A stretch of DNA of 62,604 nucleotides, counting the filler, from Dugesia japonica (Eukaryota): NCBI GenBank assembly GCA_001938525.1. It is 6 parts of 6 records of this genome, joined end to end, with 100 filler letters (N's around TTAATTAATTAA, not from the genome) between each part and the next. Parts side by side here need not be neighbours in the genome. Positions count along the whole stretch, not along the records: positions 19,610 to 28,340 come from MQRL01646138.1; 5 more parts are not named here. One strand, written 5' to 3'. The position numbers and the translations under genes were made by a program. Position 1 is the stretch's first letter, and every line of letters begins with the position of its first letter. The notes under the pieces were generated by a model that saw only the letters and a list, made by a program, of their open reading frames with translations, searched no databases and had not been told where the DNA came from. Positions 1 to 42,050 of this stretch are shown one piece after another.

Positions 1-420
1 AAGGGCTTTTTTTATAGATTTATATTCAAATAATTGTCCACATATATTACTAGTTTCACTAATGTCTATAATTCATCACTAGTTAATAATAGTTATTTTG
101 TTCGACGAATATAGACGTTTTAGCACATATTTCACATTTTTGAATTTCATGTTTAATTTTTCTTCTCATATCAAGCCAGAAGTATATTTCTTGAATATAT
201 TTCACTAACATTTTGCTTCATTCATGCAAGAATTTAACTAATTTTGGTAAATTATTTTCTGGTATAGCGATTAGTTTCCTTTTTTAATTATCTTTAATTA
301 TGAAATTCCGAAATAATTTGGATTAATCCACACTTTTACAATATTTTCTTTTCTTTACTTCAGTAATTAGATCATTACCCTAGTCTTGTAACCATCGTGA
401 TTTGCAGAGATCGACATATA
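1..420 (-). mobile_element. Degenerate Ty3/gypsy integrase N-terminal fragment
   Basis: Manual minus-strand translation with frameshifts gives KLIAIPENNLPKLVKFLHE...FWLDMRRK...KICAK, matching the HHCC zinc-binding region of gypsy integrases. Confidence 0.45.
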
Positions 421-579
421 AAATAATCAACTACACCTACAGCTTCTGTAAAAATCAGTAATATATTAAGAGATTATGTCCAAAACTACAATGAAATTTA
501 TTCAATAGGCGAGCACATTTTTGAAGTAACTCCTGGTTTCAAGATAGAGAATATTTGTATGATAATTGATTTTTGAACT

Positions 580-2230: not shown

Positions 2231-2539
2231 AATTTTTTAGATACAATTATTAAGTTAAGCGTAATTTAAATAAAAGTTAATTATTAAAATTAAANGAAAA
2301 TTAACATTATATTTATTTACAATATTAGTTCTATATGTGATAATGATAGCAGGTAAGAAATTTTAAGGCAAATAAAATTGAAGATTAAATTATATAAAAA
2401 TATAGCATATATTGAATTGTTAGAAAATTTTAAATTTGATTAGTAATCGATGACTTTTTTAACAAATATAAAAATAAGTATGTTGACCAGATAACTACAA
2501 AATCAGTAACTATTAAAACATTAATTCAAGAATATGATT

Positions 2540-3450
2540 TAACTTTTAAAAAGTAAATGGAATATTGGTATCACTCAATTAAGAAAATATACAATAAAGA
2601 CTGATTGGTCCAATAGTTATTAGTCCAAAGAGATAACTCATGCATCGAGAGAAAAGAATTAAATAATATATTCGAAATGAAAAGGGCCGGAATTGTGAAA
2701 ATGTGAATTGAGGTGGTATATCCCATTCGTGTGTGTATTAAAAAAATTAAGAAGGCATTAGAATATGTTTAGAAGTAAGAACATTGAACGATATAACTGA
2801 GAGACCATGTTTTTCGATTCCTAAGATTGAAGAAAGACTTGATATGCACTGCATTTTATTTCTAATGATTTATGGCAAGTATATTATCAAGTCAAATGTT
2901 AAGAAAAATCTGTTTAAAAATGTTTTTTGACAAACTCTTGTCAATATTTTTTCAACAGAATTCCAATTGGCATGGTAAAGACGTCTGTTACATATTGGGA
3001 CGATAAAACGAAATTTCAATAAAATGAGAGAAAGTTAATATAAAAATTGGAGTCTAATTGACTTCAAATTCACTATAAATAAAACAGTTCAACAAACTAT
3101 TAGAAAATCATCAGCTGATAATTTGATAAAAGAATATTCAAAAAGTGGTTTGATAAATCCAAATTTCCATTAAATTAACAGAAATTTGAAAATAAAATTT
3201 CCAATATTAGAAGAAATGAAATACACCAGAATATACAAGAATAAAATGTTATAGCAAATAAATCCTTTGTAGTTTGACGGAAAGGTTTGTTTAAAATTGA
3301 TTATGGAAATAAAATGGACAGTCAATCTGAAGGCATATTTATTATAAAAGAGAAATTACACGAAATAAGTTACAAATTAAAAGAAATCAAACCATAAAGA
3401 TTATTACAAGAAATACTGAATAGTTTAAAATTATGAAGGAACATGAGACG
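2540..3450 (+). mobile_element. Internally deleted gypsy remnant (RT N-terminus joined to IN C-terminus)
   Basis: WYIPFVCVLKK..GIRICL..RTLNDITERPCFSIPKIEE (RT start), then QFTINKTVQQTIRKSSAD and EGIFIIKEKLHEISYKLK (IN C-terminus). Many stops. Confidence 0.6.
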
Positions 3451-5656
3451 GTATATAATTATTTTAATTAAAATTAAATATACTGTTTATTAAATTAAAT
3501 ACTGTTTAAAGTTTAATAAGTGAAAAATACAAACCTTATAATAATTTATTGTATTCTGATTGGCTGCCTATAATATAATTAAATTAGATTTTTATGCATA
3601 AAAAGCTTACTAAAAGTTTAATAAGTGATTATATTTTAGAAAAAGGTTAGACAATGTAATACACACCAAACACACACATAGATATACACATTTTTATAAT
3701 AGATAAGTTTAAAAACTTATTAAACCTTTATTAAACTTAATTTATTATTATTGTATTTATATTATGAATGTTTGCACGCATGAAAAAAATGAAATTGTAT
3801 GATTAATTGTATGATAAATGAAATGTCAATTTGACAATTGTTGTGCTCAATCCCAATATATACGGATATTCAAGTCATAGGATATACTTTTTAATTCTTC
3901 AAATGATTTGTTTTATTTAACATCTTTAATTTACTTTAGGGTATGTCAGACCAAAAATACTTGATTTTAACCTAAAGAGCATACTGGGCACAAAGCAATT
4001 TATTTCATTTAAATAAAGTAAATAATGCATCTAAACTGTTAAATATAATTCTCATGTATATAATGAACAGTTACTTATGTCATACAATTGCAATACTGAC
4101 TCCAAACGTCGCAAACACAAATGATAGATCACATATATAGATAAAAAATAGAACTTTTCTAAAGCTGTTCACCTAGAGCTCTACCGGTAGGATTTGAATG
4201 ATCTTAAACATTTTTTTATGACTACGATAAAGGGTTTCCTTCTACTTCTTTAGTTGTGGCAATACGATTCCATGGAATTCACGATTATAATTTTGTCATT
4301 AAAATATATCGTGGTTTTAATAGTCAATTACAACTGATTTTAATATATTCATTTAGTTTCTTTTAATTTTAACACACTACTTCAAATAAGAAGGAATTTT
4401 GTAATAATAAATTAGTTATAAATAAGTTCGTCTAAATTTCACTGCCCTGGAATTCAGTAATCCTATTAGTGATTAAGCGCTAATCTTTCTAACTACCAAT
4501 CGTCGTTTTTTGCTTCACCTGAGAGTCAAATATACATATCTTCTACCGTTGTAACTTAAGTAAAAGTCATCGTTTTTGTTATAGTCTGTCATACAGTTCA
4601 TTTTATAAAGGTTCCTTGAATAACATGATAAATTAATCTAACCAATCTTGTTCTTGAAATCTTGTCAAGATCAATTCATATTTCGACTTTATTGACTCCT
4701 CTTACTACGAAAAGAGTTTTTATCTTTTCATGCTTATAATGACACTTATCAATATGACGTTTTAAGTAGTTAAATTATTGAATTCTCCACCAGACTACTA
4801 AGCAATGTCTATGTCGGTTAGTGAAGAAATTGACATTCATATTTATAACCTTGAAGTCATACTGGTCATCTTCTTAGAAGTGTATGTTTTTGGTATGGTA
4901 TCTTTATGCTGTGATAGAAGTTCTCTTATATTGGGGTTTAGAAAACAGCCGCCAACAAGTGTTAACATAAGTTTGAATTAAATGCAACTGGTGATCAACA
5001 TATTATTAATTTAATAAACGTGGAGGTATCAAATAAAATAACGGTTGCAAAAGATTAGTTTTTTAAATTTTAAATTCAAGATTTTAAATTATTTAGTTAA
5101 GGGCGAAGTAAAATTTGTTTTAATTTGCAATGATTAACGAGGTGAATGCCAAATTCAAAATCTTTCTTTATTCATTAACTTAAAATGGTGAATGGTTCTT
5201 AACCTGAATTGTGTTCAATTTTTAATATTTATATCGATCACAGGATTAGAGAAACTTTTCAATGACCACGTTCAATATTTTTTAATATGAAAGATATTCA
5301 CCTTGGTAAGATATGAGACGCTCACTAAACAAAAGGAACTGGAATAAGTCTTGTTAATGGGGTCAAAGGTAAAATGGTTTATTGGTAAAGTAACTTAATT
5401 TTTTTGTCAGTCTAGCTATTCGTTTACATTTTGTAAATATGACAAGATCCATGATAATATGCAACTAAAGACGAAATATTATTCGCTTAGTTCTAATTTT
5501 TGCGAANNNNNNNNNNNNNNNNNNNNNNNNNNNNNNNNNNNNNNNNNNNNNNNNNNTTGTAAATGAACCAATCAGTATGACCATTTAAAGATACCAAATA
5601 CCCCCTGTTTCATAAATGAAGTCTTGCGCGAATCATTATTGTTCTGATTTCCGTTC

Positions 5657-9124: not shown

Positions 9125-9960
9125 TCAAATATTTTGATCATTCATTACAATTGTGGTCTTTGTCTTCTCTACATGTATAATCTCTTCCATTTTTCTCAAT
9201 TGAAATAACGTGACCTTCATTACTTTTGTGTAATTATTTGTATTGTTCAAATAATATCTTTGTTTTCCATTTCCGAATTCTTTTCTGACATATTCACTTT
9301 TATTATGATAACTAAACTGACTGTTCATATTTATGTAACAGTTCTCTGGGTGGTGTCCTTTCTTGTTGCATCTTGAGCAACTAACTTTGGTACAGTCTCT
9401 TAAGTGTTGTTCAGATCCACAAGCTTAGCACTTTTTTGGTTTCTTGGCAATTTCTTCTTACATGAGCTATTTTGTTACAGGTCAAACACGTGATTTCGCG
9501 TTTTTCGTTGTTTCTGTGCTGTTGTATTACTTCATTACAACTCTTGTTGAAATTTCTTTGTTTTGGACTTCTGTGAACTGCATTTCTGTAGTTATGAACT
9601 ACATTTATTTCTTCAGTTTTTTCTTCGTCTTTTATGTCTTCCAAGTTTTTTATTTCTTTAAATATATCTTCTACTTTTTCTATTTGTCCTGATTTTATCT
9701 CTTATCTTCGTGTCATTGCAACTATTGATTATTAGCTCCATTGTTAAGTCATCTTTGTTTCATTTATGAGCCATTAAATTTTCTACCAATCCTTCAATCT
9801 TCTTCTTATAGATATTTATCTCCATTCCTTCGATAATTTAGAGCTTCCTTCATATATTTAATCATTGTTGATCGTCTAAAGAAAGCCTTTCTGAATCTTT
9901 CTTCAAATCCCAATGCTTCGTCTCTATTTTCATAGATTTCCCGTAAATCTTTAACTATGA
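9125..9960 (-). mobile_element. Gypsy gag fragment, same family as the 34-38.8 kb element
   Basis: Nucleotide homology to about 37440-38270 (shared TTCCATTTATGAGCCATTAA-like and GAAAGCCTTTCTGAAT blocks). CCHC knuckle CLTCNKIAHVRRNC. Confidence 0.85.
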
Positions 9961-12595: not shown

Positions 12596-15050
12596 CTAAA
12601 AATCAATTAAGCTAATAAGCCATGACAATTGTCTTATATAATCGAGATGAAAAAGGATAATAATCTCTGTGTAGTTTATACAACTCAATCATTTTTAGAT
12701 TGATTTAGTTGACAAATTTCTACTGCAATTATTTTTATTGATTTTTTTAATCGATGCCAAAATTGTCCGTCTTCCTGGAGAAACGTAAAAATATGATATA
12801 TTCTTTCTACATAAATATTATTTTTTTNNNNNNNNNNNNNNNTAAAAAAATTGTTTATTTTTTAAAAGATATTTACTTAATTTTTTAATTATCTGATAAT
12901 ATTAATGATATTCTCCAGAAAAAAAATAATTTTGAATATAAATACTCAATAATTATAAACACTCTTAATGATTAACAAGAAGCCATCTATGGCAACTGCT
13001 GACTGAATAACAAAACAACAACACATGAAGTTACATGATTTCTCTAAAGACTAACCTAAAGAAATCAATGAGATATGAGTATACATTAGTGATATATATT
13101 CAGGTGTTGGGAACATGAATTTAATGCAACAGCAGCTACGGTAGCAAAATATCAGAAATGAGAATAACAGTGTTTAGAATTGATGAAGTCAAACAATGCT
13201 GCAGTGAGTACATCATTGCATTGTCAAATGATGGCGAAACTATCACCTGTTTTCACTACATTGAAAACATCCGTATCGACAAGAGAGAGAAAAGAAAACA
13301 CATCGTTCATTGCAATAGGCGTGTAACGTTGCGTGACATACAAACATGCTGGGTTGACAAAAAGACCATATGTCAACCATATGTCGAGCTCACAAAATAC
13401 TATACCACAGAGAGTAGTTACGCAAGCAAAGAACACTATATTTTTTTCATCGAATCCCAGCTTCACTATACCGCTTTATTCAGAATAAATAAGACGACAG
13501 AAACAAGCATGTTGGATATGTCGTTTTTTTCATAAATATTGTCAATGCGTTTATAGTCATCGATGTGGAAAAAACGTCAGAAATTTGTATCAGTTAACAT
13601 TTCCTGCAGTATTTCGTGATGTTGTCGTCATTGTGAAGAAGATGAGGGAGCATTTATAAGAGGAGTTTCAATTATCTGTAGGTTGTAATTGCCTAGGATA
13701 AAGGATATTCTCCACCTGCATCCCCATCAACTACAGTCGTACACAAAGCAGCCACAGACATACACACTTGCTCACATTTTTTGCTAAAAAAATATTTCAA
13801 CACAACAAGCAATCAGTCATTGGAGAAAATATACGATTTAAATATTTGTCTTCGACATTTCAATGTAGTTGAGTGGACGGACTTTCAACGGGATTTCTGA
13901 ACAATTTTTGATGACATATTTGAACATTTTTATCTTCTCTTATTTCTGTTTTTGCCTTTCAGACGATTGTTTTACTACAAGTCTGGCGTGTAAATATAAA
14001 TATAAATAAATGATGATAAATAAATGTCATTTTTTTAATAAGAGATCTCAAACCCACAAACAGAAAAACGAAAAATCTTAATAAATCTTCTAATTAAATT
14101 AATTTAAAATTTATTTTTAAATGATAAAAACAAATTTAGTATTTCATAAGTAATTTATAAAATTTCATTAATTTTTACTAATTGCAATTAATCTCTATAA
14201 ATAAAATTTAATTTTATTTAATTTCAAATAAATATTTCAAAGAAAATAATAAAACAAAAATAAATAGAAATTCAAAAATTAATAATAATTCATTTTTCAA
14301 TCATAAATATTTTCTAAATTCCCATTTTTTATTTTATTAAAATTTTTATTATTAAAATTAATTCAGATAAATTTATAGATATTTATTTAAAATTTTTTTT
14401 TAATGTAAAAACAAACAATAAGTTAGATTAAGGTTTTCGATCACATATTTCTTGTATTGTAGAAAATAAACAAATCCTAATTTTCTCCATAAGGGCTAAC
14501 AGAAAAATTTAATTGTTTAACTGGAATAGGTGTAATTTAGATTATTAAAATTTAATTTTTTATCAATTTAATTATAAAAATTACTATTACAAATAAATTA
14601 TTGAAACCTCTTATTTGAAAGAGTTTAAAATAAAATAAGAAAAAAATTATTATTAAAAGTATCGTGTGAGAAAAAATAATATGATAAAATTAATAGATAT
14701 AATAAAAAAAACGTTCTAATTAATGATAAAACATAAAATAATTTATCAGTTGAAATTTCACAATGAAAAATATTTGAGTAGATTTTATAGAATTATAAAT
14801 ATTTGTATTTCAAATCTGACAAATTTTAACAAACTAATTCTCAATGCCTAAAAGGCATTTTCGATAACGAAAAATTTCATTTTGTGTTACTGTATGAACA
14901 TAAATATTACATAACCAGTGTCAGATGTTTAAATGTATTTGTTTAGTAAATTGAAAAAAATTTTAATGATAGAATTCCAATTGAAAATTAAAACTCGATT
15001 TGATATGAATAGAATAAAAAAAAATTTTTTTTAACTAAAATTTATCTTAC

Positions 15051-15659
15051 CGATTCATTATGTAAACTGTTGTGTGAATCTTTTGAATTAGTTTCTCCAA
15101 GATTTCGAATACCATGTCGAACATAATGCAATTGCAACTGATGAAATGATTGCTGGTAACAATTGCAGAAAATACATTTGTATTGCTTATCTGTCAGGCT
15201 GTGTTCTATCATATCTGAATTTGTCCGAGAACAAGGTCTTGTATCAGGAGATTGTTGCATTTGTGACAAATCTGACACAAATCCATTTGATTTTTGGCTT
15301 TTTGAATAAAGTTTGCCGGAAAAATAGATGCTAATAAAAGCAATATTGCCATACATATCATTTGAATCGGGAGAAACTGATTTTGTAATAGATAAATTTT
15401 CTTGTAAATTTGTTGGATTGCTAGAGTCATTTGAAGGATGCTTGTTGTGAATAAGAGTAATATGTTCATGCATAAAATGACGACAAGAAGCGACTTTGTG
15501 ACAAATAGCACAACGGTAAATTATATAATCGATCATTTTATCTGGATGAACTTCATCGAAATGTTCTTCAATATTATTTAAAAGATAACTGTGAAATGTA
15601 CATAATGGACAATGTAAAACAAGCACATCAGTTGGCATTAATTGTGGTAATAAACCCAT
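15051..15659 (-). CDS. C2H2 zinc-finger protein, first coding exon (3 fingers)
   Basis: Fingers CPLC-x12-H-x4-H, CAIC-x12-H-x4-H and CIFC-x12-H-x3-H. Acceptor TTCAG| lies just upstream of the ATG (15666), with an upstream UTR donor GTGAGT at 15752 and a downstream donor |GTAAGA at 15050. Confidence 0.85.
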
Positions 15660-15749
15660 TTCAATCTGAATGTAGAAAAGTTAATAAATTAACTCATATT
15701 TATTATAGAAATAAAATTGATACAAATATGTATAATAAAATCAGTAACT

Positions 15750-19509: not shown

Positions 19510-19553
19510 NNNNNNNNNNNNNNNNNNNNNNNNNNNNNNNNNNNNNNNNNNNN

Positions 19554-19565
19554 TTAATTAATTAA
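19554..19565. other. Artificial contig linker
   Basis: N44-TTAATTAATTAA-N44. Confidence 0.95.
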
Positions 19566-20279
19566 NNNNNNNNNNNNNNNNNNNNNNNNNNNNNNNNNNN
19601 NNNNNNNNNTGATTGATTTTCTGGTTTGAATTATTTGCTTCTACATGTATATGCCTGTATATGTATGCTTATGTGTATATGTGTGTATGTTCAGATCTCA
19701 ACAAATGTAGAGACTGCTCATACCATGTAAAATATAAATACCCCCCCATCTCATACATAAATATAAAGTCTTTTCAAAAGAACTTTCATTAAAAATTTTC
19801 CCCTCCAAAAAATAGTTTTTTTAATTTTCTACCGCCAAAAAATAAACTTTTGAATTTCATGCAAAAAAATTTTCAAAAATATCAAGACTTCCCTCTTCCA
19901 ACATCGAAAAATATTTTAAAAAAACCCTTCCCTGTTCAAAAATATTCAAAAAAAAAACTCAAAAAATACATCAAATACAGAAAAATACCATTACTTTCTA
20001 ATAATTCATCAATTTAAGCAAAATACAGCATTTTTACTCAAAATAAAGATTTCAAAACATTATGACGTCATAACCACCCGGTAGAAAAATTTCAAATAAA
20101 TCTTTAAAAATCTGATAATTAATTCTCTTTCCACCCATATCACTCTCCCCCTCCCGAATTTATTTTAAAACACTTATACTACTTACAAATATCAACTAAT
20201 CAAATTAAAGCCCTTAAAATAAAAAATCAAAGCACATTCGACATACAAAATATTCTNCATCACATTACCTTTCCATTAC

Positions 20280-22223
20280 CTCAACAAGTTCTGAGGAGCA
20301 TTTTAAAGATTTGGAAATGGTTTTTAAACGTTTGAAATTAGCTAATCTAAAAATTAAATCATAAAGGTATGAATAGGTCAAAGAATCTGTGGTGTACGTT
20401 GGACATGTTATATCAACGAATGGTATCAAGCCGAATCCAGATAATGTAATAAAAGTGCAGAAATTCCCTATACCTAAAAATGTAAAGCATATCAGACAGT
20501 TTCTGGGATTAGCCGAATACTATAGAAGATTCATTCGAAATTTTGTACAAATAGCAGAGCCGTTGGATAAGTTACTTAGATTTGAAAAAAAATAAATGGA
20601 GTCAAGAACAGCAAATATTATAGAATTAATTGATATCAGAACCTATACTTATACATCCATTTATTCTTATGACAGACGCCAGTAATTATGATATAGGAGC
20701 AGTATTGGGATAAAAAGTTGATTGATAAAAAGATCATGTTATTACATATGCTAGTCGTCAAGCATCGAAAAGGAAGCACTAGCTATCGTTTTTGCAGTAT
20801 AAACTTGTATATATTATCCAATTGGTAAAAAGATCTATCCATATACAGATCATAGTCCCTTACTCATGACTCACCGGAATACAGCAAGTAGATTAATGCG
20901 GTGGGTGTTAAGTCTGCAAGAATTCGACATCGAAATTAGATACAGAAAAGGAAAGGCAAGTATCAAAGAATTAGTCAACTAATAAAGAATAAACAAAAAT
21001 ATTTTGTGCTAGACGGAATTTTACAATGCATTGTGGGTGTAAATGTAGTAACCGTAATACCAGAACATTTGAAAGATGCAATCATGTTGTAATATCACGA
21101 TGGAACCTTGGGAGATCATCTATCAGCCCGTAAAACTGTCGAGAATTAAAATTAAATATTTTTGAGAGACTATGGAACAAGATATTAAAGAATGGTGCAG
21201 AACATGCAATACATGCTTGACTAGGACAAATATGGGTACCAAAATCAAAGTACCTCTTAAACCCATGCCTGTACCATCAGCACCCATGGAAATGACTGGG
21301 ATATTATTGGGTCACTGCCAGAAACAGTAAATGGGAATAAATATATACTTGTATTTTGCGACTATTTAACTAAATGGCCAAAAGTTTTTGCGTTGCCAGA
21401 TCAAAGGGTAGAGACCATAGCACTAGTATTCGTTGAAAATATTATATTTCGATAAGGTACACCTCAAAAACTATTGACGGATCATGGAACAAATTTTACA
21501 AGTGATTTATTTAAAGCACTCACAGAAATATTTAATATCTTGAAACTAACAACGTCACTATATCATCCGCAAACAGATGGATTAGTTCAACAATTCAATG
21601 ATCCATTAATTAACATGTTGGCGTTTTATACGAATTGCAAACAGAAAGATTGGGATCTGTTCATAAATTCATGCTTATATGCGTATAGAAATAGCGTACA
21701 TGTTGGCACAGGTGAAACAACTTTTTGCTTAATGTACTTAAGGAGAAATAATATGCCAATAGATTTGGAATTTCAACCACCAACGGCTCAATATATGAAA
21801 TTACCTGACTATAAAACAGTGATGGTAGAGCGCATGCAAATAGCCTGGAAACAGGCTGAGCTGAACATCAAGCATCAACAAGAAAATTATAAAAGCCAAT
21901 ATGATAAAAATACTAAAAATCATGGAATTAAGATTGGGGATCTAGTTTACGTAAATAAACCTGAACCAAAGAAGGGTCAATACCTAAATTAAAGAGACCA
22001 TTTAAAGTACCCTGTGAAGTATGTGGAACAACTGATACAAATTTACAGCTAAAACCAATTTAAAAACCAATTATTGTGTATGCAAATAGATGTAAAAAGG
22101 TCATGGAAGTGGATACCCAGTATTATCTATTGCGATCAAAACAAATAGCTAAAATGGACGGGACAATAAATTTCACAATTAATACGAACGTACAATCGAA
22201 AAATGCATTATTATCCACGTAAT
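20280..22223 (+). mobile_element. Ty3/gypsy pol remnant (RT end, RNase H, integrase)
   Basis: YVGHVISTNGIKPNPD...RQFLGLAEYYRRFI (RT thumb), MTDASNYDIGAVLG (RNase H), HDGTLGDHLS...WCRTCNTC (HHCC), TDHGTNFTS...YHPQTDGLVQQFN (IN core). Frameshifts and stops present. Confidence 0.92.
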
Positions 22224-22892
22224 GGGATGCATAGCTAATGTATTTGGTCAGAATACTAGCGTGGGAGACACTGTTACTAAATTAAAAATTATGGACCGGA
22301 TGACAATTTTCTCAAGATACAGTGTAATAGCATGGTATTTCAAAAGTAGTTCTGATGAAATGTGCCTTATTCGTAATTTAAATGCATCATCAAGTAAAGT
22401 GTACGAGTTGAATTTTAGAATTAACAAAATAATCATTCGAAATTTAAAAATTAACAGAGAATATGCGCTTAAAATTCATTATTTTGTCATTGAATATGAT
22501 GGTAAAAATGGTACTAGTAAAATAAAAATGAAAGTTTGGGAGACACGAATATGGACAGAGAAAATTAAAAACAGAATTGAAATTAAACCGCTTGAGAATG
22601 AAATTCATATTTATTGGAAATCAAATTACTATTGAAATTTTTAACTTAACTGATTTTAGATACCCTGAATTACCATAAAAGACTTATACACTATGAAAAT
22701 TCATAATCAAATATGGAGTATTGTATGAATGTGATGTACTTGGAGAGGTACATCGATAATAATTTTACAGTTACATCTAGAAAGTGGATTGAGATTGATC
22801 CCCAAAAATCCTGTTCAACTGACAGGGCGGTCTTGGTCGCCTGATTTGGCTTTATGGTGTGTGTTGTTTGGGTATTTCAACGTCGAGGATAA
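22201..22892 (+). pseudogene. Extra ORF in env position of the gypsy element: signal-peptide-like + FN3-like domain(s) + C-terminal TM (type I membrane glycoprotein), disrupted
   Basis: Hydrophobic KCIIIHVMGCIANVFG|Q. FN3-like pattern VIAW...IIIRNLKINREYALKIHY, and a second repeat start IEIKPLENEIHIYW. Sequons NTS, NAS, NGT, NLT and NFT. C-terminal AVLVA*FGFMVCVVWVF-QRRG-stop (22890-22892). Confidence 0.6.
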
Positions 22893-23274
22893 AACATAAC
22901 AATCAATCCATATGATATTTTAGGTTATTGTCAAGCTAACTGTCCACCTTAACAAAATTTTAATCGAAACAATTCTTTTTCAAAAAAAACTAAATAAATA
23001 ATAATAATAAATTAATAATTCTTAAAAATAAAATCATAAATGATCTTATTATACCTACTCGCTTGTATATCGATTATGTTACGTCTCTCTATTTTTTATC
23101 ACCGCCGACAGCTTCAGTTTATTTAAAATATTAGCTATCGCGGAAATTTATTATTAATTAATCCAAGTTCTAAGTTAAAATTATTTTTAAAACACAAAAA
23201 AGAAGAAAATTTGATATTATTAATTATTATTATTACTATATATATATTTTTAAAATATTTATTATTAATCGTAA

Positions 23275-23275
23275 T

Positions 23276-23318
<43 letters not shown>
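23275..23318. repeat. (TTA)n microsatellite
   Basis: Tandem TTA repeats adjacent to an N gap. Confidence 0.9.
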
Positions 23319-26105
23319 NNNNNNNNNNNNNNNNNNNNNNNNNNNNNNNNNNNNNNNNNNNNNNNNNNNNNNNNNNNNNNNNNNNNNNNNAGTGTTATTT
23401 ATTATTATTATTTATTTATAATATTTTTTATAATATTAGACTTTTTGTTGACATTTTGTTTTGTGTTATTGTTATAATTGGTTTGTTAGTACGATGGTTG
23501 CTATTGGTATTATTACTCGGTTAATGTAATAAATAGTTTCGATTAGGTAATGTCGAAACTAAAATGTGTGGACATATGCTGGACTCCTGCTGTTCTACCA
23601 GACAATTCCGCTGCATCTCTAACACTTGTATCAAATTCTCCTTTATTACAAATTGCTACTTGGCAATCCTCAATTCGGCTTTCAAATCCTGTATTATAAG
23701 ACTTTGATTCGCATTGCCTGCACTTCTCCCCACTCTATGTAAAAGTATTCGTCCTCATCTATGTATATACCATCTTCTTCGTATCCTGTTTTAATATTCT
23801 GGACATGTCAATTAAATTATTATTCACTTTTATTTTATTCGTTATGCTGTATTTACAAAATAACCAACCAATATGAAGGAAGTAATTGTGTGAGTTCAAT
23901 AATTTAAACTCCCCCAACCTTAGTAAAAATTAAACAAAAAAAAGTTCGAAATGGGTATTAATGCTGGATATTTCTACTCAACAAAAAATTTTATAGTTCG
24001 TATTTAAAACTATCGTCAATAAAATGTGAATGGANNNNNNNNNNNNNNNNNNNNNNNNNNNNNNNNNNNNNNNNNNNNNNNNNNNNNNNNNNNNNNNNNN
24101 NNNNNNNNNNNNNNNNNNNNNNNNNNNNNNNNNNNNNNNNNNNNNNNNNNNNNNNNNNNNNNNNNNNNNNNNNNNNNNNNNNNNNNNNNNNNNNNNNNNT
24201 TAGTAACCTTAAGAGCAAGAAATTAATTAAATAGATAGCTGCCTCACTGAGATTCAGAGCTTCTAATAATTAGAAAAGTTTGAAAAGAATTACAATCAGA
24301 TCAGTATTTATACTGATTTTACATACACATGCATGTACAACATTATTTCATAATCCTTCATAAATTTTTATAAAAATTAAAATAAATATTTATACTATTT
24401 GAAAAAAATCGAATTATTCTTCATGAAACTTACAAAATAACATAAATATTTTAAAATTAATTTCTTACAAATTTCTACTTTTGTATATTGTAAATTGTCA
24501 AATATCATAAACATTAAATATTCGATGAAATAAATAACAGAACTAAAATAAATTATCAAAATTAAAATCATTGATTTTGTACTTTGTGCATAAAAGTAAG
24601 ACAATTCAAATAACGATTATATCAAATGTTCGATTCAAAATAATGTCTGAATAAATGAATAATTTATCCATTGTTGCTAATTTTGAATTTAAGCACGCTT
24701 TGCTGACTGAAGGTTGAGGGAGCATTGGCTGAATTTGTGTTTTTTATGCTTGTGTGTGTGTCTAATTGATCTCAACATTAACAGCTAATTTCTTAAACAC
24801 AATTGATTAATCTTTATTGGAAAATCCTCGTCACAGATAAATATTGTCACACGTTATGCTTCTTTTCTATTTATGTAATTTAATCAAAATAATTATTTCA
24901 ATCATTAGTTCATTTTTACGATAGCTGTTGATCGAATCAATTCTGGCATCTCTATGAGTAGATTTCGTCTTCCTGTCATCAATATTTCTACCACAAATNT
25001 TATTTCATCTATTAATTGAAACTGATCGACAAATAGAATACGCCAAACAATATTTTCAGTCGTAAATGATGCAAAAAATTAGGGTGAAATTTTCCGAGCG
25101 TCCCTTGAAACTAAAATCCCTTTTTTCCATACGTGAATCCTGCTACCTTTATGTATTTGACCATCATGATCTTCTACACGGCTTACATGCACGTTTATAT
25201 TTCTCTCTCTATCGTTAAAATAGTGATATAGTTGTCAGAGAGTACCGCTTCTGAGATGAATCAGTCACTTACATCGTAGATGCCATTTATTAATTACATT
25301 AGTCTCGTAAAACCCTAAATAATCACTGTTGAAATTTTTGTGTCACGCCAATGATTATTATTGAAGTCGCGGAAATTAGTATGATACCCGATGGTTATCA
25401 TTCTTGACATTAGAATATTCTATTTTATTATCTGTATATTATAGAGAAATTTCCATTGTTAGCAAATGACTCAGTTGGTGATTATTTCATGAATGAGTGG
25501 TATAAACAGAGATAATTGGAATATGAATAATCAATGTTAACTTCAAATCTGTTGAATTTTTGTTCATTGTTCTCTTTGGCGAAGACTACGAGCACCTATA
25601 CCTCTTGAACCTGTTATGATTGATCAGGATACCCCGTTCCATCTTTAAATGTTGTAAATAAAATAAATATTTTAAAATTGAAACCCATGTTCAATTTGAA
25701 TCTTTCTAATTAATCTGTTTTATTGCTAATTTATCAGTTACCAAGATCCTTAAAGAAATGTAACCGATTATTGAGAGGTTTGCGCTTAGAGCCTTCACCA
25801 TAAGCAACAAGAGAATATGCTAATAAGGCATATACAACGAAATAAAATTGATGCGGTAAATATCATCCTTAGTATAATTATTATTAATATTATCATTATC
25901 ATGGAGATTATTATCGTTATAATAATTAAAATTGTNCGCAGTGTTTGACAAATCAGTAGGATATCAATGATGACACTGCCGCCTTTAATATAGCAGATGA
26001 AAATCCGTCCAATTCGTAACTGTAGAATTTTCAATATTAAATAATAAATATATATGTAATGCAATAGAAAATTTTCATTAGTTTTACTGAGATTATTACT
26101 AATCT

Positions 26106-26390
26106 TTAAGTTTTTATTTCAATGGAGTTTTTTTGGCCTTTTTTTAAACACGGAATTTTATCAGTAGACATGCCAACCGACATATTATTGTCGCTTGATG
26201 ATTTGTCTGCTGACATGTATTGAGATGATGAATTTGCAAATGATAGTTCATTAGAGCAAATTGCAATCTCAATAACATGCCTCAGTGAATTAATTAAGAT
26301 GAAAAGTTCTCCTAAAACCAAGCCAAGTTGAGAAAATATACATTCTAGGCTACTTCTCATAATCATGTTAAAAGATTCAGAATGACTTTC
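26106..26390 (-). CDS. Candidate orphan coding exon (amphipathic helix + Ser-rich tail)
   Basis: 98-codon open frame in a GC-enriched island, with a possible AG acceptor near 26387. No clear domain. Confidence 0.3.
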   Translation of the reverse strand, partial: ESHSESFNMIMRSSLECIFSQLGLVLGELFILINSLRHVIEIAICSNELSFANSSSQYMSADKSSSDNNMSVGMSTDKIPCLKKGQKNSIEIKT

Positions 26391-27041
26391 AGATAACAAC
26401 AATTTTTAATTATTAATATTTATACACATATAATCAATTTAAATGCTAATATAATTTTCTTGTTATCCTTTTAATTTTTTAAATAATATTTATTACTTCT
26501 AAAACATTATTTCGCATTCCCAACATATTAAATTCCCAATAAACTTTAACCAAGAATGATATTTAGGAAAGTAAATTTCTTCTCAAATTATCTTATTCCA
26601 AATAATTATTTACATGCGCTAATTTTAATTGATTTATAAGTATAAAACCATTATAAATTATTATCATAATGCTTTAGCACTCGCAAATCTAATGGATTTT
26701 CTAATGATATTTCTAATATGATGTGACGTAATATGATCTGCGCGTAATAATACAAAATTAGTGAATGGAGAAAAAATTAAAAAACAAAATTATATTATAA
26801 TCGAATATGTTTTTATTATATTTTCTAAAGAATTATATAAAAAAGCTAAGACCTTTCATACATATTTCTGTATCAATTGTAACCTAAAATCTATTATTGT
26901 TATTTAATAGTTTAATTAAATTATTTAATTAGTTTAATAAAAGTTGAAAATAAGATATAATAAACTTTTACAATACTAGTTTGTCAATTAAATTTCTAAA
27001 ATGGTAAAGAAACTTAAAATGATTAAATTAATTATTATTAT

Positions 27042-28145
27042 TTTTGGGATTCCACCTGAGTTGAGTGAATAAAAATATGACTGGGGAAAAGACAGCCCTT
27101 AGTGGACCCTTTCAAGAATTTACCTAAAGTCCCTATTTAGGTTTTCGGTGTAGAGCGGTTGATCTCCAACGCGTATTTGATGTACTCACTCGTACACCTT
27201 TATATTCGAGTTCAATATTTTCCCCACTATTTCAATGCAGTAATCATAAGACAATTTTAACAAAAACCGGTACTAGAAGTTTATTTTACATTTAATTACA
27301 TATAATTCAACTCCTCAGGGTCCAGCCACTGGGCGGGCTCATTATTCGTAAAATCGAATGCGGCCTCATCGTCATCGCTATTCCACCTGGTACCACTTTC
27401 TAACTCTAACCGGGTGGATAGGTCGGTGATGTACCTATTCAAGAAGTCGATTTTGTTTAACATAATTTCATTAGTGCAGTTTGCCAGCGCGTCTTGTTTC
27501 TTTATTATGTCTAATTACTTGATCAAACGGTTTCTTTGGGCCAGGTAGTGCAGCAGAGCACGCTCGTTTCGTTTGGCAAAGTGTCGTTCGAGCAAAAGCT
27601 CGTCTAAGGCTATTAGGAAGGCAAATCCTGGGCACTTAATAGAATAAATTGATTGAAAATTGAACTACTTCACTAGTTAGTTATTTAATATAAAAATTAA
27701 TCCGACTAAAATTATGGAATAAGCACTGAACAGAGTTAATTTTAATTCATTTCAACAACTACATAGTCATAATTAACTGACAGTTCTAAAATCGAGGAGT
27801 TTGAGTGGCCTTGGTCACCATCAACGACTCTAAGGGAATATGCTTATGCAATTTCCAACAAATCGTTCACCAGTTTATTTTCACGGTCATGGAGGGACCA
27901 GATAACATCGGCGAAGGATTCAATTTGTTGATTCTGAGCATGTGAAGCTTCAGCTTCCTGACAATAGATTAAGATTTTACTTTTATACCACTTCACTTTG
28001 CTATTAGCGGCGGTGGTGTCGGCCTTCCATTTTCGTTGGTAGTACTCAGTCGGTCGAGGTCCCATGACATTTCCCTATCTTCACTATCCTCTCGGATCTT
28101 TTTGGTAGGGGTGACAGAGCGGTTCAAAGATGAATGCACTAAATA
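27042..28145 (-). mobile_element. Repeat cassette copy 1: two orphan ORF/exons plus LTR-like terminal segment
   Basis: Reverse-complement homolog of 40940-42050. Shared peptides ADTTxAN.KVK...EAEASH...SLHDRENKLV and NER.LL.YL.Q.N.LIK.LDII...NSDDDEA.F.F.N.EP.QWLDP..LNYM*. Shared non-coding end GGG(A/G)TTCCACCTGAGTTG. Confidence 0.8.
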
Positions 28146-28384
28146 GTATAATGTTTAATTAAATTAGTGACTACGATGATGGCATAGCCAAAAAAAATCT
28201 CTCATACGTTATTTAATAATTCGAGATTTTTAAGCTAAACGAACCCAAAAAATAATTATATAAATATTTCCTATGAACAAAACTATGGATAGAATAAACT
28301 ACCTAAGTCAGATAAAACAATCTCTTTTACTCGATTACAANNNNNNNNNNNNNNNNNNNNNNNNNNNNNNNNNNNNNNNNNNNN

Positions 28385-33727: not shown

Positions 33728-33966
33728 CTATGACCAGCGTTTCCTTGAAGATAATATGGAGATCAAAATGTTTTTTGTTAGTGTCTTCGATGTATAATAT
33801 AATATTCGTTCCTTGCCATCTTGTACTTGAGAAAGTACAGCACCAATTGCGTTGTGAGAAACATATGTATCCAAGATATATTTTCCATCCTTTGTTGGTA
33901 AAGCTAGTATTAGTGATTCTGTCAACCTTTTACGTAGCTTGTAAAAATATTCTTTATTTTCATCTG
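33728..33966 (-). mobile_element. Gypsy RT-connection/RNase H fragment
   Basis: TDENKEYFYKLRKRLTESLILALPTKDGKYILDTYVSHNAIGAVLSQVQDGKER. Confidence 0.85.
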
Positions 33967-34225
33967 TCTGAGAAATTTTTCAATACAATAATTTAAAAAT
34001 ATCGATTTTTTAATTTTATGAAATATTCTACTTTACATAAAAATTTCATAAAATATTTTACAAATATCGTTTTTTAACTTTATGAAATATTCTACTTAAC
34101 ATACTAATTTCATAAAATAAATTAAAAATATCTATTTAGTTTTATGAAATATTTTATTAATATTATAAATATTTAAAATTTAAGAAAGATTTCTTAGATA
34201 TTTAAATCTATGAATGATTCTTACA
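33967..34225 (-). repeat. 3' LTR (truncated) of the gypsy element
   Basis: Direct repeat of about 38543-38763 (GAAATTTTTCAAT...AAGAAAGATTTCT-AGATATTTAAATCTATGAATGATT-TTACA). Begins TGTAA on the minus strand. Confidence 0.8.
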
Positions 34226-37200
34226 TAAAGAGAGATATACAGGTCCATACGAGGTGATAAAACAGATTCATGATAGACGATACCTGCTAAAAAGTTCAGA
34301 AGGCAAGATGATTGAAAGAAATGTGGAAAAGAATAAAAAATATTTTAAAATATTTATGAATCGGTCTTATCACCTCGTACGGACCTGTATATCTTTNTTT
34401 GTCTTTTGATCTGTTTTCTACCTTGATTACCACATCGTCTTCAACTTGAAAATGTCTCTTTGTTGGTGTCAACTCTCCGGGTTTTTTATTCTTTTCTCCA
34501 TTATTGAACTATCTTTCTCTATGTATTTTCTTACCGAATATCACTTCTGCTGGACTTATCCCTAAAGACTTCTGGCTTCTTGCATTTAGTGTATATTCAA
34601 TTTTTGGTATTAACTCTGCCCAATTTTATTCTTTTTATCTTTTAATGTTGCATTGATGTAATCTCTGATCATTCTTAATTGCCGCTCTACTATTCCATTT
34701 GTATTATGATGANATGGACTTGAAAAGCAAATTATTATATTCATTGAATCTGTCATCTCTTTGAAGGCTTTCGATTCGAAGGTCTTCCCACAATCTAAAT
34801 GTATCTCTTTTAGGGCACCAAATCTCAGTATACATTTCTCCATAATCGTTTTCGTTATTGATTCCTCATCTTGTTTATCTAGGGCTGTTAAGTATATGTA
34901 AATGCTAAATTTATCTATAATGGCACATATATATCTTTTTATTCCTATGGTTTCTTGGAAAGGCCCACAGATATCAATATAAATACTCTCAAATGGTTCA
35001 TTAGCCTTTAATTTTATAGTTTCCTCCTTTGTTCTATTTGTTGTCACTTTTTTCATTTGACACACTGCACATTCTTTAATTACTTTTGACACAGTGTCCC
35101 TTAAATCTTCCATATCATATTCATTTTTTAAAAATTTATGAATTTTTCCGTGCCTGCATGCATCAATAAATTATCCATTTCTTTTACCATTTGAATTTTC
35201 TTTTCTGCCGGGATCCATATTTTGCCGTCTTTTGTTTTTATTATATCTTCTATTAATCGAAACTTTTTAGATGTTTCATTTTTCATATCATTCTTTATCT
35301 GTTCAATTTCTTCTACGTTACTTTGCCATTTATATTTATCTGAGCCTGATATACCATTAATTGTTCTTGTCTCTATTTTTCCTTCCATTGGATTCTCATC
35401 ATTTGTTAAGCATTGTACACACTCATCACAATTCATTCTCGACAGCACATCTACATTTGTGTGTTTCGCACCTTGTCTTAATTCCAATACCATATCTAGG
35501 TTACTAAGAAAAATCATCCAAGTCTGAAATTGCGAAGTAATTGGCTTGTTTGTCTTTTTCTCACAAAAAATCTTTTCCCATACAAATAATGTTTAAAATG
35601 GTTACCAAAATAGTAAATGGCCAATAATTCCTTTCTTGTTATACAATATTCTTTTTCATGAGCTGGCATTGCATGTGACTCATATGCAATGACTTGTTCT
35701 AAATCCTTTTCATCTATTTATGATAAAACTGCTTTAATTGCATCAAAACTCGCATCTTTATCTAGTACAAACATCTTTTTGATATCTGGAAAGCTCAATA
35801 TTGTTGCTTTTATTAATGCATCTTTCATCTCATTAAAAGCTTTATCATAAATATAATTTTCACGTAGCTCTTCCAAGTTTCTAGCTTTCTTTGAGTAATT
35901 ATTGGTAAATCGTCCATTTTAATTGCATATTCCCAAGAAGCTTCTTAAGTTCTTCACACATTTAGGTCTTCCGAATTTTTTTATCGCTTTAATTTTTGTG
36001 GGATCAGTTCGGACTTCTTTTTTGAATTCGCTCTTAATAAATGACATTTTTGCGGATTAATTCTCAATCCTGATTCTTGAATTCTTTTAAAAACTTGGTC
36101 TAAAATTCTATAGTAATGCTCTATATTTTCTGAAAATACAAATTTATCATTCATGTATTGTTCCTTTAAAATTTTCTAATACTTTTGTCATTAATTCTTG
36201 AAACGTTCCAGTTGCTGCAGTTATACCAAAAGGCATTCTTGTGAAACAAAACTGTCCATTTTTAGTAGAAAATGCTGTTTTTTCTTGTGAATTTTTATGT
36301 AACGGAACTCCATATCTTTAGTACCCAAATCAATAGTACTAAAATATCTTGATGACTAGTATTTCCTCTACATTGGGCATCAAAAATCCCTGTCTTTCTG
36401 TGATTGCATTCAGTTTTCTAAAATCTAGACATAATCTAACGACATTTCTTTCTTTTTCCAAACACATATTAACGGAGTATTNCATTGCGAATTACACTTT
36501 CTAATAATGCCATTGTCAAACAAATTCTTGATAGCTTCATCGATCTTATTCGCTAAATGCATTGGTTGTCTCCATGGTTTCGTATTTATTGGTTTTCTAT
36601 TTTTAATTATTTGATGTTCTACCATTGTTGTTTTGCCGATATCCCAGTTGTCTGCCATGAATATTCCTTTATAAATCATTATAACTTTCTCTAAATTATC
36701 GTATGGCTTGTTAATCAATATTTTTATTANTCTCTGTACTCTCTCTTCATCCGTTGTACTGCGTCCATACTTTGCTTCTNTATTACAAAGATACATTTCA
36801 TTGTCCTTACATTTAGTCTTTCTCAGCAGTTGGAATCAAACTGTTTCTGTAATTCTATTCCTCATATTAGATCTGTATGTATCTGTTTCGCCACAATGAA
36901 TTTAATGGTTTTGCTTTTATTCTCGAATTCCACTTCTACTTTTATCGTACCTACTATTTCAAGCAGACTATTATTGGCACATCTTAAATTCTATTTGCTT
37001 TTTAATTTATTAACTTTTCCCAATCTTTCCAAAATTCTCAAACTCATCACATTAACTCTTGCTCCAATGTCTAACAAGCAATCAACTTTTACGACTTGTA
37101 TTTCAACCGTTATACTTGGTATACCTTGCGTCTTGTCATAACTTATTTCTTGTCGCTTTATCTCTTCTATCGTCAGAATTCCACTTTCATCTTCTTTATT

Positions 37201-38466
37201 TAAATCATTGATCATCTTTGGTTGGCCTCTAATCCATTCTTTCTTTACAAACTTGTAAACCTTTTCTTTTAAATCATTGTACTCATCTACTCATTTATCT
37301 TTGTTTCTTTTATTTATATCATTATTTATACTAATTTTCCTATAATTAAAAATACTTCAATTTTTTGGTATACTTAATTCAACGCTCCGACAATATTGAC
37401 TTCGGTTAGATCTTAGTCATTTGGGTATTCGTCTTTATAAATATTTGATCCTTCATTACACTCGTGAACTTTGTCTTCTCTACATACACAATCTTTTCCA
37501 TTTTTGCTCAATTAAATTAACGTGACTTCCATTTCTTCTTGTGTAGTTATTCGTTGTGTTCGAATAATATTTTTGGTTGTCATTTCCGAGTACCTTTCTG
37601 GTCTGTTCACTTTTATTTTCATAACTAAACTGTCTGTTCATATTTGTGTAACAGTCCTCTGTGTGGTGACCTTTATTGTTACATCTTGAACAACAAACCT
37701 TGGTACAGTCTCTTCTTAAGTGTTGTTCAGATCCACAAGCATAACACATTTTTTCTTTCTTGACAAATTCTGCTTACATAACCTATTTTGTTACAGGTTT
37801 AACATGTTATTTTCGTCTTTCGTTGTTTCTGTTCTGTTGCATTCCTACATTTGGACTCTTATTGAAATTTGTTTGTTCTGGACTTCGGAGAACTACATCT
37901 CTGTAGTTAAGATTCACATTTATTTCTTTAGTTTTTACTTCGTTTTTTATGTCTTACCACTCTTTTACTGCTTTAATACATCGTCTACTTTTTCTATTTT
38001 TCCTGATTTAATTTTATGTTTAATCTTTCTGTCGTTGCAACTATTCATTATTAACTCTTTTGTTAAGTCCTCTTTGTTCCATTTATGAGCCATTAACTTT
38101 TCTACCAATCCATCAACCTTCTTCTTATAGATATTTATATGCTCTCCATTCTTTCAATAATTTAAAGCTTCCTTCATATCTTTAATAATTGTTGATGGTT
38201 TATAGAAAGCCTTTCTGAATTTTTCTTCTAATCCCAATGATTCATAGATTTCACACAGTTCTTCATCTATGACAGCAACTATAAACAAACTCATCTGGCC
38301 TTTCTTTTTTCTGGTTATATCAAAATATTTCGTTGTCTTCAAAATAAATTTTTCGACATAATCGCCCGATTTGAAAATTCCAGGGTTCATGGCTTCTTTT
38401 AGCAAATCCATTGATGCGTTGGTTGCCATATTAGTTAAATTCAAAACCTCACAACTCTCCAGAAAT

Positions 38467-38763
38467 TGTATTTATTATTACACGTGTTTTTGATTAAAAT
38501 AAAAATAATGTCAAGAATAATTCATAGTATTCAAACAAATAATCTAAGAAATTTTTCAATAAAATAAATTAAAAATATCGATTTTTCATTTTATGAAATA
38601 TTCTTCTTTACATAAAAATTTCATAAAATATTTTACAAATATCGATTTAATTTTATGAAATATTTCATTTTACATATGTTTTAAAAATAAATTTTAATAT
38701 TATAAATATATAAAAATTAAAGAAAGATTTCTCAGATATTTAAATCTATGAATGATTTTTACA
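38467..38763 (-). repeat. 5' LTR of the gypsy element
   Basis: TGTAA...TACA termini on the minus strand, followed by a TGG-containing PBS-like TTCTGGAGAGTTGTGAGG and gag. Homologous to 33967-34225. Confidence 0.75.
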
Positions 38764-40939: not shown

Positions 40940-42050
40940 TTAGTGCACTCATAACTCAACCGTACAGTTGCTCCAACCAAAAAGGTTTTGGAAAATAATG
41001 AGGACCTCGAGATGTCTTTGGCTAGAGTATAGGCTAGCGAAGCGTAGATGTGAGGCCGACACAACTAATGCCAATGCGAAAGTTAAGCGGTATAGGAATC
41101 AATGTCAGAAGTATCGATTAGAAGCAGAGGCCTCACATTCGCAGGAGCGCTTCTTGAAAGTGCAATTAGAATCATTTGCTGTTATTATCCGGTCCCTCCA
41201 TGACCGTGAAAATAAACTGGTCGCCAATATTTTGGAGCTGTCGGAAACAAGTCGTTGGACCCTTTAATGGTTGATAAGTCCACACAGACTTCAAGCCTAT
41301 AACTGCTCGTCTCATTTCGTTGTAAATAAATGTTATATTTGAGTAAACTGGTTTGTGTTTATCTAATGAAGTTCCTTTCAACATATCTATTGTTTATCTT
41401 TACATCAATCAATTAGTTTAATTTTTAATTAGATGTTTCTTTTCAGTGCCTAGAATTCGTCTCCGCACTAGTCTTAAACAGTGTCATCGCTTAATCCAGA
41501 AGTTTCTCTTGGAAATAAAGAGAAAAAACGAACGTGTCCTGCTCCGATACCTTATCCAGAAAAATATATTAATTAAAAAATTAGATATCATAATCAAAAA
41601 ACAAGGGGAGTTGGCGGAGCGAACCAAAAAGATGTTGGAGAATAAGATTAATTTCTTGAATGATCGATTTGTCCAGACAATTAGAGCTAGGTTCATGGAC
41701 TAGGTGTAATAGTGACGATGATGAAGCCGTCTTCAATTTTATGAATGGTGAGCCTACCCAGTGGTTGGACCCTGCAGCATTAAACTATATGTAAATAAAT
41801 GAAAAAATAAAACTTTCTTGTATTTTTTTAATAGATCTTGTTTTTATTTACTGAATCAAAATAACGGTGGAATTATTGAACCCAAATAAAAAGATGAGCA
41901 ACTCCAAATAAGAGTTGGGAGTCAACCGCTTCACGTCGAAAACCTAATAAGGGGCATCCTAATAAGGTAAATTCTTGGACGGGTCACCTGAGAGCTGATT
42001 TTCCCCCCAGCCAATTTTCCTCTACAACCAACTCAGGTGGAACCCCAACA
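40940..42050 (+). mobile_element. Repeat cassette copy 2: two orphan ORF/exons ending at an LTR-like terminus (...CCCCAACA)
   Basis: ORFs 40968-41267 and 41446-41703 (continuing to LNYM* at about 41794) are homologous to 27042-28145. Each is preceded by a TTTAG|TG or TTCAG|TG acceptor, and AATAAA follows the second ORF. Confidence 0.8.

Follow-up and report, generated by a model that had tools for sequence, protein, structure and literature searches.

A Ty3/gypsy lineage, with a decayed copy in Dugesia japonica, in which Pol continues in frame into a signal sequence, FN3-type repeats and a transmembrane segment

The element in Dugesia japonica and its relatives

We analysed a stretch of 62,604 nucleotides from Dugesia japonica (the window; NCBI GenBank assembly GCA_001938525.1), in which six parts of six records are joined and positions 19,610 to 28,340 come from MQRL01646138.1. 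The plus strand at 20275-22892 carries the decayed remains of a Ty3/gypsy pol and, downstream of it, a signal sequence, a pair of beta-sandwich repeats and a segment that looks like a transmembrane (TM) helix. The element is set between the gaps at 19510-19609 and 23319-23390 in an AT-rich draft assembly with N gaps. An earlier inspection of the letters alone (the sequence-only reading) had proposed a gypsy integrase followed by a fibronectin type III (FN3)-like type I membrane protein at this place, and our analysis confirms it, including the YYLLRSKQ end of the integrase, the tryptophan, the L-x5-Y motif, five sequons and a TM-like 17-mer followed by QRRG and a stop. In relatives of the element the same parts form one continuous polyprotein with Pol, and we conclude that this clade-wide, in-frame Pol-signal-FN3-TM polyprotein of a Ty3/gypsy lineage is real. 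The features of the window copy are listed here, with P0002, P0050 and L001 denoting relatives described below.

20275..20961 (+): 3' part of reverse transcriptase (RT) and RNase H (RH) of a Ty3/gypsy pol; tblastn of P0002/L001, 55% identity; Pfam RT_RNaseH E 3.9e-5
20958..21977 (+): integrase (IN) zinc-binding and core region, decayed; 64% identity to P0002 over 359 columns, 79% over 21456-21977
21968..22198 (+): integrase C-terminal domain with a short linker after it, both in the pol frame; 59% identity to P0002 724-811
22199..22248 (+): internal signal sequence with a frame change at ~22219; co-linear with an unbroken stretch of P0002
22290..22557 (+): FN3-type repeat 1 in an open frame; 47% identity to P0002 and 26% to P0050 (pairwise E 3e-9); repeat hidden Markov model (HMM) independent E-value (iE) 1.6e-13
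22570..22796 (+): FN3-type repeat 2; tblastn to L001, 33% identity over 22620-22796
22827..22877 (+): TM-like segment that shares the repeat 2 frame and is interrupted by a stop at 22842; 17-mer, Kyte-Doolittle hydropathy 2.6, no charged residue
22878..22952 (+): basic post-TM residues QRRG and a stop at 22890; the frame runs 19 codons on to a second stop at 22950 and includes a YxxL-type motif

The pol part, which comprises the end of RT, RNase H and integrase with its C-terminal domain, has the RT-RH-IN order of gypsy elements; protease (PR) stands upstream of RT in L001 and in another relative, P0051. The RT-RNase H segment is 5'-truncated, has stops and frame changes, and is followed by an internal deletion of ~54 codons before the integrase. 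With many stops and several frame changes in its pol, the window copy is a dead, decayed element, as had been thought. An R/Y-Y-x-L-R-S motif closes the integrase C-terminal domain (YYLLRSKQ at 22121-22144), and a [RK]Y-x-[LF]R motif is present in seven of the nine proteins of the clade defined below. No long direct repeat was found in window positions 19600-24030, where the copy is 5'-truncated between gaps, or in L001, which starts in the protease and ends in the tail.

Beyond YYLLRSKQ the pol frame remains open for ~25 codons, as far as 22219. The sequence-only reading had put a hydrophobic leader one base out of frame immediately after YYLLRSKQ; the frame change lies inside the signal sequence at ~22219, and the first part of the proposed leader, KCIIIH, is off-frame relative to L001. 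Because the relatives are in frame across this point, the window frameshift represents decay, and we rejected a programmed frameshift after integrase. The basic, hydrophobic and small-residue stretch is uninterrupted in P0002 and has similar counterparts in P0049, P0050, P0051, P0053, P0003 and P0055. Signal sequences and their cleavage were judged by eye, and type I topology from a hydropathy scan and sequon counts. A 150-aa open reading frame (ORF) at 22183-22635 contains the tryptophan (in AWYF) and the L-x5-Y motif (LKINREY); FN3 domains typically show such an L-x5-Y motif ahead of strand F, together with an aromatic residue in strand B. Five sequons lie in segments that match a relative (22252, 22381, 22507, 22643 and 22761), the second and third of them within repeat 1 and the first just upstream of it.

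An HMM of 14 of the relatives' repeats, built without the window, gave 39.1 bits (iE 1.6e-13) to 22300-22557, its next-best match in six frames of the window being -1.4 bits, and still gave repeat 1 18.2 bits (5.8e-7) when the closest relative was left out. No second copy of the FN3 region was found elsewhere in the window. The second repeat claimed earlier is also present, scoring 96 in local alignment to L001 against a maximum of 56 in 1000 shuffles. Frame changes interrupt it between ~22617 and 22655, as does a stop at 22704, and the ITIKDL that had been assigned to its start is off-frame, the repeat going on in another frame that matches L001.

Homology to L001 stops at 22796. Beyond it the window has a 10-residue linker and the TM-like segment, whereas L001 goes on with a third repeat and a stalk. 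The C-terminal TM helix that had been proposed thus survives as a hydrophobic 17-mer, with a stop at 22842 inside it and without alignment to the TM of L001 (249 of 1000 shuffles scored equally high). When 3626 30-codon blocks of the window, the element's own among them, are scanned for a TM-like 17-mer followed by basic residues, 5 have one, and GC content is 47% in 22800-22892 versus 23% in 22893-23000; the region is coding-like in GC, and the segment is unlikely to have arisen by chance. The natural end of the protein may be the stop at 22890 or lie further on, GC being 32% in 22893-22949 and 18% in 22953-23100.

Searches with the 150-aa ORF alone gave little. None of six candidates was a near-length homologue, because the relatives are fused to Pol and long, and none of 27 stretches from a GTDB scan with this ORF was confirmed. 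A match to an fn3 cluster in the ESM Atlas (0.89) serves as a lead only. P0001, a bacterial-looking repeat protein of 2249 aa and the sole match in a 50%-representative search, was rejected as a chance match through a short YSV-x-x-WYF word.

The relatives were instead reached via the integrase. A search of longer proteins, with 47 matches among 159 candidates, yielded P0002, which is 79% identical to the window in integrase and is a single ORF running from RT-RH-IN directly into a homologue of window 22219-22700 (45% and 34% identity). A second search with P0002 590-977 as probe, from which the best 120 of 230 matches were taken, added P0049-P0055. Nine of the 164 proteins with an integrase match, P0002 among them, are at least 54% identical to this probe. 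Together with the window they form a clade with SH-aLRT support of 100 in a quick tree of 71 rows, where the window groups with P0002 (96) and with P0049/P0050 (98). A FastTree of 156 rows, from which 11 rows with short matches were omitted, places the window in a 10-row group with support of 95, apart from seven named lepidopteran Pols, in a tree built without a curated errantivirus reference. A GTDB scan also recovered two contigs, L001 (JBOFCV010000293.1, positions 1-4655, the contig of P0002) and a further clade member, L002 (JAYSWT010000083.1, positions 1-1891). Both are filed in bacterial metagenome-assembled genomes and are probably mis-binned eukaryotic contigs, that is, contamination.

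In seven relatives (P0002/L001, P0003, P0049, P0050, P0051, P0053 and L002) the integrase frame continues unchanged through a signal sequence and related repeats, and a TM helix is present in six of these, L002 being cut off. Fusion to Pol, which the sequence-only reading had raised as a possibility, is therefore the observed and normal state of the FN3 protein, and copies linked to gypsy integrase, by which that reading could be checked, do exist. L001 encodes PR-RT-RH-IN-signal-three repeats-serine/threonine-rich stalk-TM-tail in one frame with two in-frame stops, the frame passing one of these into the third repeat, stalk and TM; L002 is open from the end of RNase H and the integrase via the signal sequence and one repeat to the contig end, with no stop in 630 codons. 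Three repeats are found in L001, P0049, P0050 and P0003 and two in P0051 and P0053 (boundaries by eye). A tail of more than 150 aa with a TM helix occurs in 6 of 9 clade proteins versus 3 of 155 others. These three (P0073, P0083 and P0094) are chromodomain Pols fused in frame to a different, long env-like protein with a signal sequence; none has a Pfam env match, and P0073 and P0083 show an R-S-R-R site in the part of the sequence inspected.

We dismiss the reading of the ORF as a chance product, or as part of an unrelated host gene, next to which an ordinary gypsy element happened to insert. In its favour, the ORF of the window copy lacks a Pfam match and does not share the pol frame, but the DNA of the copy is co-linear with L001 at 69% over window 20958-22637, across the integrase-ectodomain junction, which rules out a neighbouring host gene, and seven relatives carry the two parts in frame.

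The slot after integrase looks modular, with two or three repeats, a Cys-rich domain, extra proteases or no TM. In P0055 (~1060-1349) a small Cys-rich ectodomain occupies the place of the FN3 repeats, preceded by a signal sequence and followed by a TM and a long tail with tyrosines. Extra aspartic-protease-like domains (D-S-G) follow the integrase in P0003 (596-692) and P0052 (~605-700 and 889-983), the latter with a C2H2-like finger between the two.

Fold, constraint and possible roles of the ectodomain

The structural match to FN3 by which the proposal could be judged was obtained with an AlphaFold model of P0050 541-820, computed from a six-row alignment that includes the window ORF. Mean pLDDT is 66, with 61-87 per 10-residue block over residues 1-160. 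Foldseek returned 351 PDB matches at E <=0.001 (best E 1.4e-7), and all those listed belong to proteins with FN3 domains (fibronectin, Tie2, CD45, neogenin, insulin receptor) at 7-17% identity. A VIA search gave Z 8.0 to FN3 domains 1-2 of CD148 (root-mean-square deviation (rmsd) 7.8, 165 aligned residues) and Z 7.8 to fibronectin ED-B (rmsd 3.3, 83 aligned), with IFNAR1 among the top matches and mostly FN3 rows. The BFVD structure matches that carry names are mostly phage tail or FN3 proteins. Repeats 1 and 2 of P0050 are modelled as seven-strand beta-sandwiches of ~90 aa, superposable on solved FN3 domains, and on this model we assign them the FN3 fold. Pfam fn3 (PF00041) matches the L001 ectodomain at E 0.0034 and 18 bits, under the gathering cut-off of 25. 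The leucine of the L-x5-Y motif is invariant in alignments A1 and A2, and the motif is visible in most of the 14 repeats. By homology to P0050 (26%, pairwise E 3e-9, and the repeat HMM) we infer that the window ectodomain is also FN3; for the group of P0003, P0051, P0053 and L002 the same assignment is weaker, and the P0003 ectodomain had no usable match in the ESM Atlas. PDB sequence searches did not identify a donor gene, the best match being CD45 at E 0.16-0.47. A PDB sequence match to GhpA (E 5e-11) was taken as a repeat-sum artefact, no stretch of its 5898-aa chain passing.

The ectodomain is constrained as a protein. Between the window and L001, the ratio of non-synonymous to synonymous differences per site (pN/pS) is 0.14 in integrase, 0.46 in repeat 1 (bootstrap 0.36-0.60) and 0.39 at the end of repeat 2 (0.26-0.56), with synonymous sites near saturation, and the two ectodomain values indicate purifying selection. 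At the same time the ectodomain diverges far faster than integrase, the respective identities in four pairs being 87/38, 70/26, 68/33 and 79/47%. In the relatives it has ~300 aa, 2-9 sequons and 2-11 Cys, and the features of a type I membrane glycoprotein (predicted cleavable signal, sequons, single TM, short tail) are found. No furin-type site (R-x-K/R-R), RGD or WSxWS occurs in six of six relatives' ectodomains, and no extra hydrophobic segment lies between signal and TM at the thresholds used. In the P0050 model, tandem FN3-matching sandwiches of ~90 aa stand in place of the class I or III fusogen fold and size of errantivirus-type envelopes, the furin-type site that precedes the fusion peptide of F-type envelopes is absent from all six, and the WSxWS of type I cytokine receptors is likewise missing. 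The C-terminal pattern [ST]-x-V (as T-x-V) ends four of six complete TM tails versus 1 of 155 other Pols (Fisher p 3e-6); we take it to be a class I PDZ-binding pattern.

Several observations weigh against the picture of a clade-wide FN3 polyprotein. Gag and long terminal repeats (LTRs) are seen in no member, the window copy beginning within RT and the contigs stopping short of the region upstream of PR. The clade members P0052 and P0054 lack a TM tail, and P0055, with its Cys-rich ectodomain, shows that not all of the clade has FN3. In sequence, the repeats of P0002/P0049/P0050 are modestly linked to those of P0003/P0051/P0053 (iE 5.5e-6 and 0.0012 in one direction, 0.05-0.14 in the other). 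Pfam has no match on the 150-aa window ORF, the fold was predicted for P0050 only, and single-sequence AlphaFold of the window ORF was uninformative (pLDDT 35). Within the P0050 model the third repeat is poorly modelled, and whole-model Foldseek TM-scores are low for this three-repeat model (0.20-0.28). The VIA Z of ~8 is middling, near the level of common beta-sandwiches, and a Bacteroides glycan-binding domain ties at Z 8.0 (rmsd 2.7, 79 aligned). The T-x-V pattern was spotted post hoc, P0049 and P0050 are sisters, and the window tail is without it.

What is observed, then, is Pol continuing past integrase into a predicted type I glycoprotein with a signal, 2-3 FN3-type domains, usually a serine/threonine-rich stalk, a TM and a short tail, and the match of the relative's model to FN3 supports the earlier suggestion that the lineage acquired a cell-surface adhesion- or receptor-like ectodomain. 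The function we favour, at about even odds, is adhesion or attachment without fusion, in aid of transfer between cells or by vesicles; the sequence-only reading had suggested cell-to-cell spread or particle targeting, a role that such a protein might play. By analogy with what is generally known of membrane polyproteins, Pol would be translated in the cytosol until the internal signal sequence directs the downstream chain into the endoplasmic reticulum (ER), where signal peptidase would free the ectodomain and the TM would halt transfer, giving glycoprotein and Pol at 1:1. Integrase would remain membrane-tethered until protease cleaves the linker after the R-Y-x-L-R-S motif, the position at which P0003 and P0052 carry their extra aspartic-protease domains. 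The glycoprotein may then reach the cell surface, sorted by tyrosine motifs and the C-terminal T-x-V PDZ-type motif, where the FN3 rod could bind a host surface or matrix partner and bring the particle-bearing membrane against a neighbouring cell. Attachment would occur without fusion, and entry might proceed via host uptake or junctions. The natural intact reading frames of P0049, P0050, P0051, P0053 and P0003 make these steps directly testable.

The fast divergence of the ectodomain would also fit a conflict with the host, and the protein might be a receptor decoy or signalling mimic which binds a cell-surface ligand or receptor, or recruits PDZ or SH2 proteins by its tail, damping defence or favouring carrier cells while taking no share in the transfer of particles. 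Decoy receptors with FN3 domains are known from viruses, the structural matches extend to IFNAR1, CD45, CD148, Tie2 and neogenin, and the tails of P0003, P0051, P0053 and P0055 have several tyrosines while four tails end in T-x-V. We nevertheless consider this unlikely, given that the matches are generic FN3 at 8-17% identity, WSxWS is absent from six of six ectodomains, and the tails vary greatly in length and content, those of P0049 and P0050 having ~20 residues.

The obligate in-frame fusion, which would hold integrase at the membrane until cleavage, could also be a membrane anchor or sorting device that tethers Pol and assembling particles to the ER, plasma membrane or vesicles of the producer cell, with FN3 as a ligand-free spacer. 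The exchangeable content of the ectodomain (two or three repeats, or the Cys-rich domain of P0055) would suit such a spacer, but a bare TM would be enough, and multi-domain ectodomains with predicted glycosylation are kept under purifying selection across lineages with integrase ~58-68% identical, so that we regard it as distinctly improbable.

A true envelope fusogen of a new structural class would account for the env position, type I topology and predicted glycosylation. It appears highly improbable in view of the absent furin-type site, the lack of an extra hydrophobic segment from signal to TM at the thresholds used, and the absence of any fusion glycoprotein among the 50 BFVD matches or the PDB matches listed; to our knowledge, tandem FN3 rods do not act as fusogens.

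Other features of the window

Further decayed LTR elements are present. One gypsy-type element at 45411-48777 (+) has protease at 45411-45800, integrase at 45954-46685 and RT-RNase H at 47577-48777, with an 89% inverted repeat at 45776-45958 / 46180-46362; its integrase-before-RT order resembles the Gmr1 arrangement. A third gypsy pol (RT-RH-IN) lies at 33770-36835 (-), with no FN3-type repeat detected. An AT-rich pair flanking it (33967-34225 / 38543-38763, 78%) has no clear LTR look and was not accepted as LTRs. Integrase and RT remnants of a further LTR element are found at 1532-1813 (+) and 2757-2843 (+). Repeated sequences include 37439-38243 and 9127-9919, which are 84% identical, and the GC-richer stretches 27044-27569 and 41526-42048, which are 67% identical in inverted orientation.

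Among likely host genes, an unbroken 583-codon ORF at 58633-60384 (-) has a ligand-gated ion channel domain (Pfam Lig_chan, E 4.5e-14) and is a gene of eukaryotic type, which we take to encode an NMDA-type glutamate receptor subunit. C2H2-like zinc fingers, with weak Pfam matches, are encoded in a 212-codon frame at 15042-15680 (-), probably a host exon. The 137-codon frame at 50817-51230 (+) has no Pfam match, and we presume it to be a fragment of a hAT-family transposase. Five gaps (10056, 19510, 28341, 40712 and 51767) each consist of a 12-base linker with stops in all frames between two runs of 44 N, an artefact of assembly.

Comparison with known systems

Cellular FN3 receptors and adhesion proteins (fibronectin, CD148, CD45, Tie2, neogenin/DCC, IFNAR1) share with the clade the tandem FN3 fold, type I topology, sequons and a tyrosine- or PDZ-type tail. 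They differ in that identity is 8-17% with no donor identifiable, and in that the protein here is encoded within a retroelement polyprotein. No FN3-bearing LTR retrotransposon was found in the literature surveyed, which covered neither Repbase nor subscription journals nor supplements, so that an earlier annotation is possible; env-position proteins of FN3 type are apparently undescribed and lie outside the F- and gB-type fusogen families.

Lineage-specific membrane or accessory ORFs after pol are known from Oikopleura Tor elements, whose Env is a separate, furin-cleaved ORF product with a putative fusion motif (PMC4402516), and from bdelloid ORF3 proteins, which are separate ORFs of F-type, small TM, GDSL or DEDDy kinds (PMC5408684). 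In contrast to these separate ORFs, the protein here is fused to Pol. The word 'fibronectin' occurs in the accessible text of neither paper, nor is it mentioned in that of a report on other membrane or accessory ORFs (PMC6338049). The MDG1 sORF2, a FAST-like product of a short separate ORF with fusogen hallmarks (PMC11952523), is likewise a membrane protein, independent of any envelope, through which an LTR retrotransposon has been proposed to spread from cell to cell, whereas the clade has a 250-400 aa FN3 ectodomain, with predicted glycosylation, fused to Pol; fibronectin goes unmentioned in the accessible text of that paper too. Burro/GYPSM1, the giant gypsy of planarians, also combines a membrane glycoprotein and accessory domains within one polyprotein, but its fusion-glycoprotein-like env lies in frame between gag and pol, and the glycoprotein here follows integrase and is FN3 ('fibronectin' has no occurrence in the accessible text of PMC6431247).

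The envelopes of invertebrate LTR retroelements are generally regarded as F-type or gB-type fusogens that derive from viruses. In the metazoan survey of Chary and Hayashi (2026; PMC13524379) all envelopes are F-type or HSV/gB-type, and those of flatworm elements are gB-type in a gag-env-pol order. The baits of that survey were F and gB envelopes, and 'fibronectin' has no occurrence in its main text, so an FN3 protein could have escaped it; fusogen-baited surveys can in this way miss a class of surface proteins. The clade described here keeps a receptor of cellular FN3 type instead, which suggests that attachment or manipulation of host cells forms a distinct step on the evolutionary path from retrotransposon to retrovirus. 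We tentatively suggest, at somewhat less than even confidence, that it represents a third class of Ty3/gypsy surface protein beside the F- and gB-types, in which a captured cellular adhesion-receptor module at the end of Pol, an FN3 rod with a PDZ-type tail, would allow an invertebrate retroelement lineage to pass by cell contact without a fusogen of its own. Like the env-carrying Ty3/gypsy errantiviruses of that survey, these elements have a gypsy Pol followed by a type I membrane glycoprotein, but theirs is of FN3 type, lacks a furin site and is read in the Pol frame (PMC13524379).

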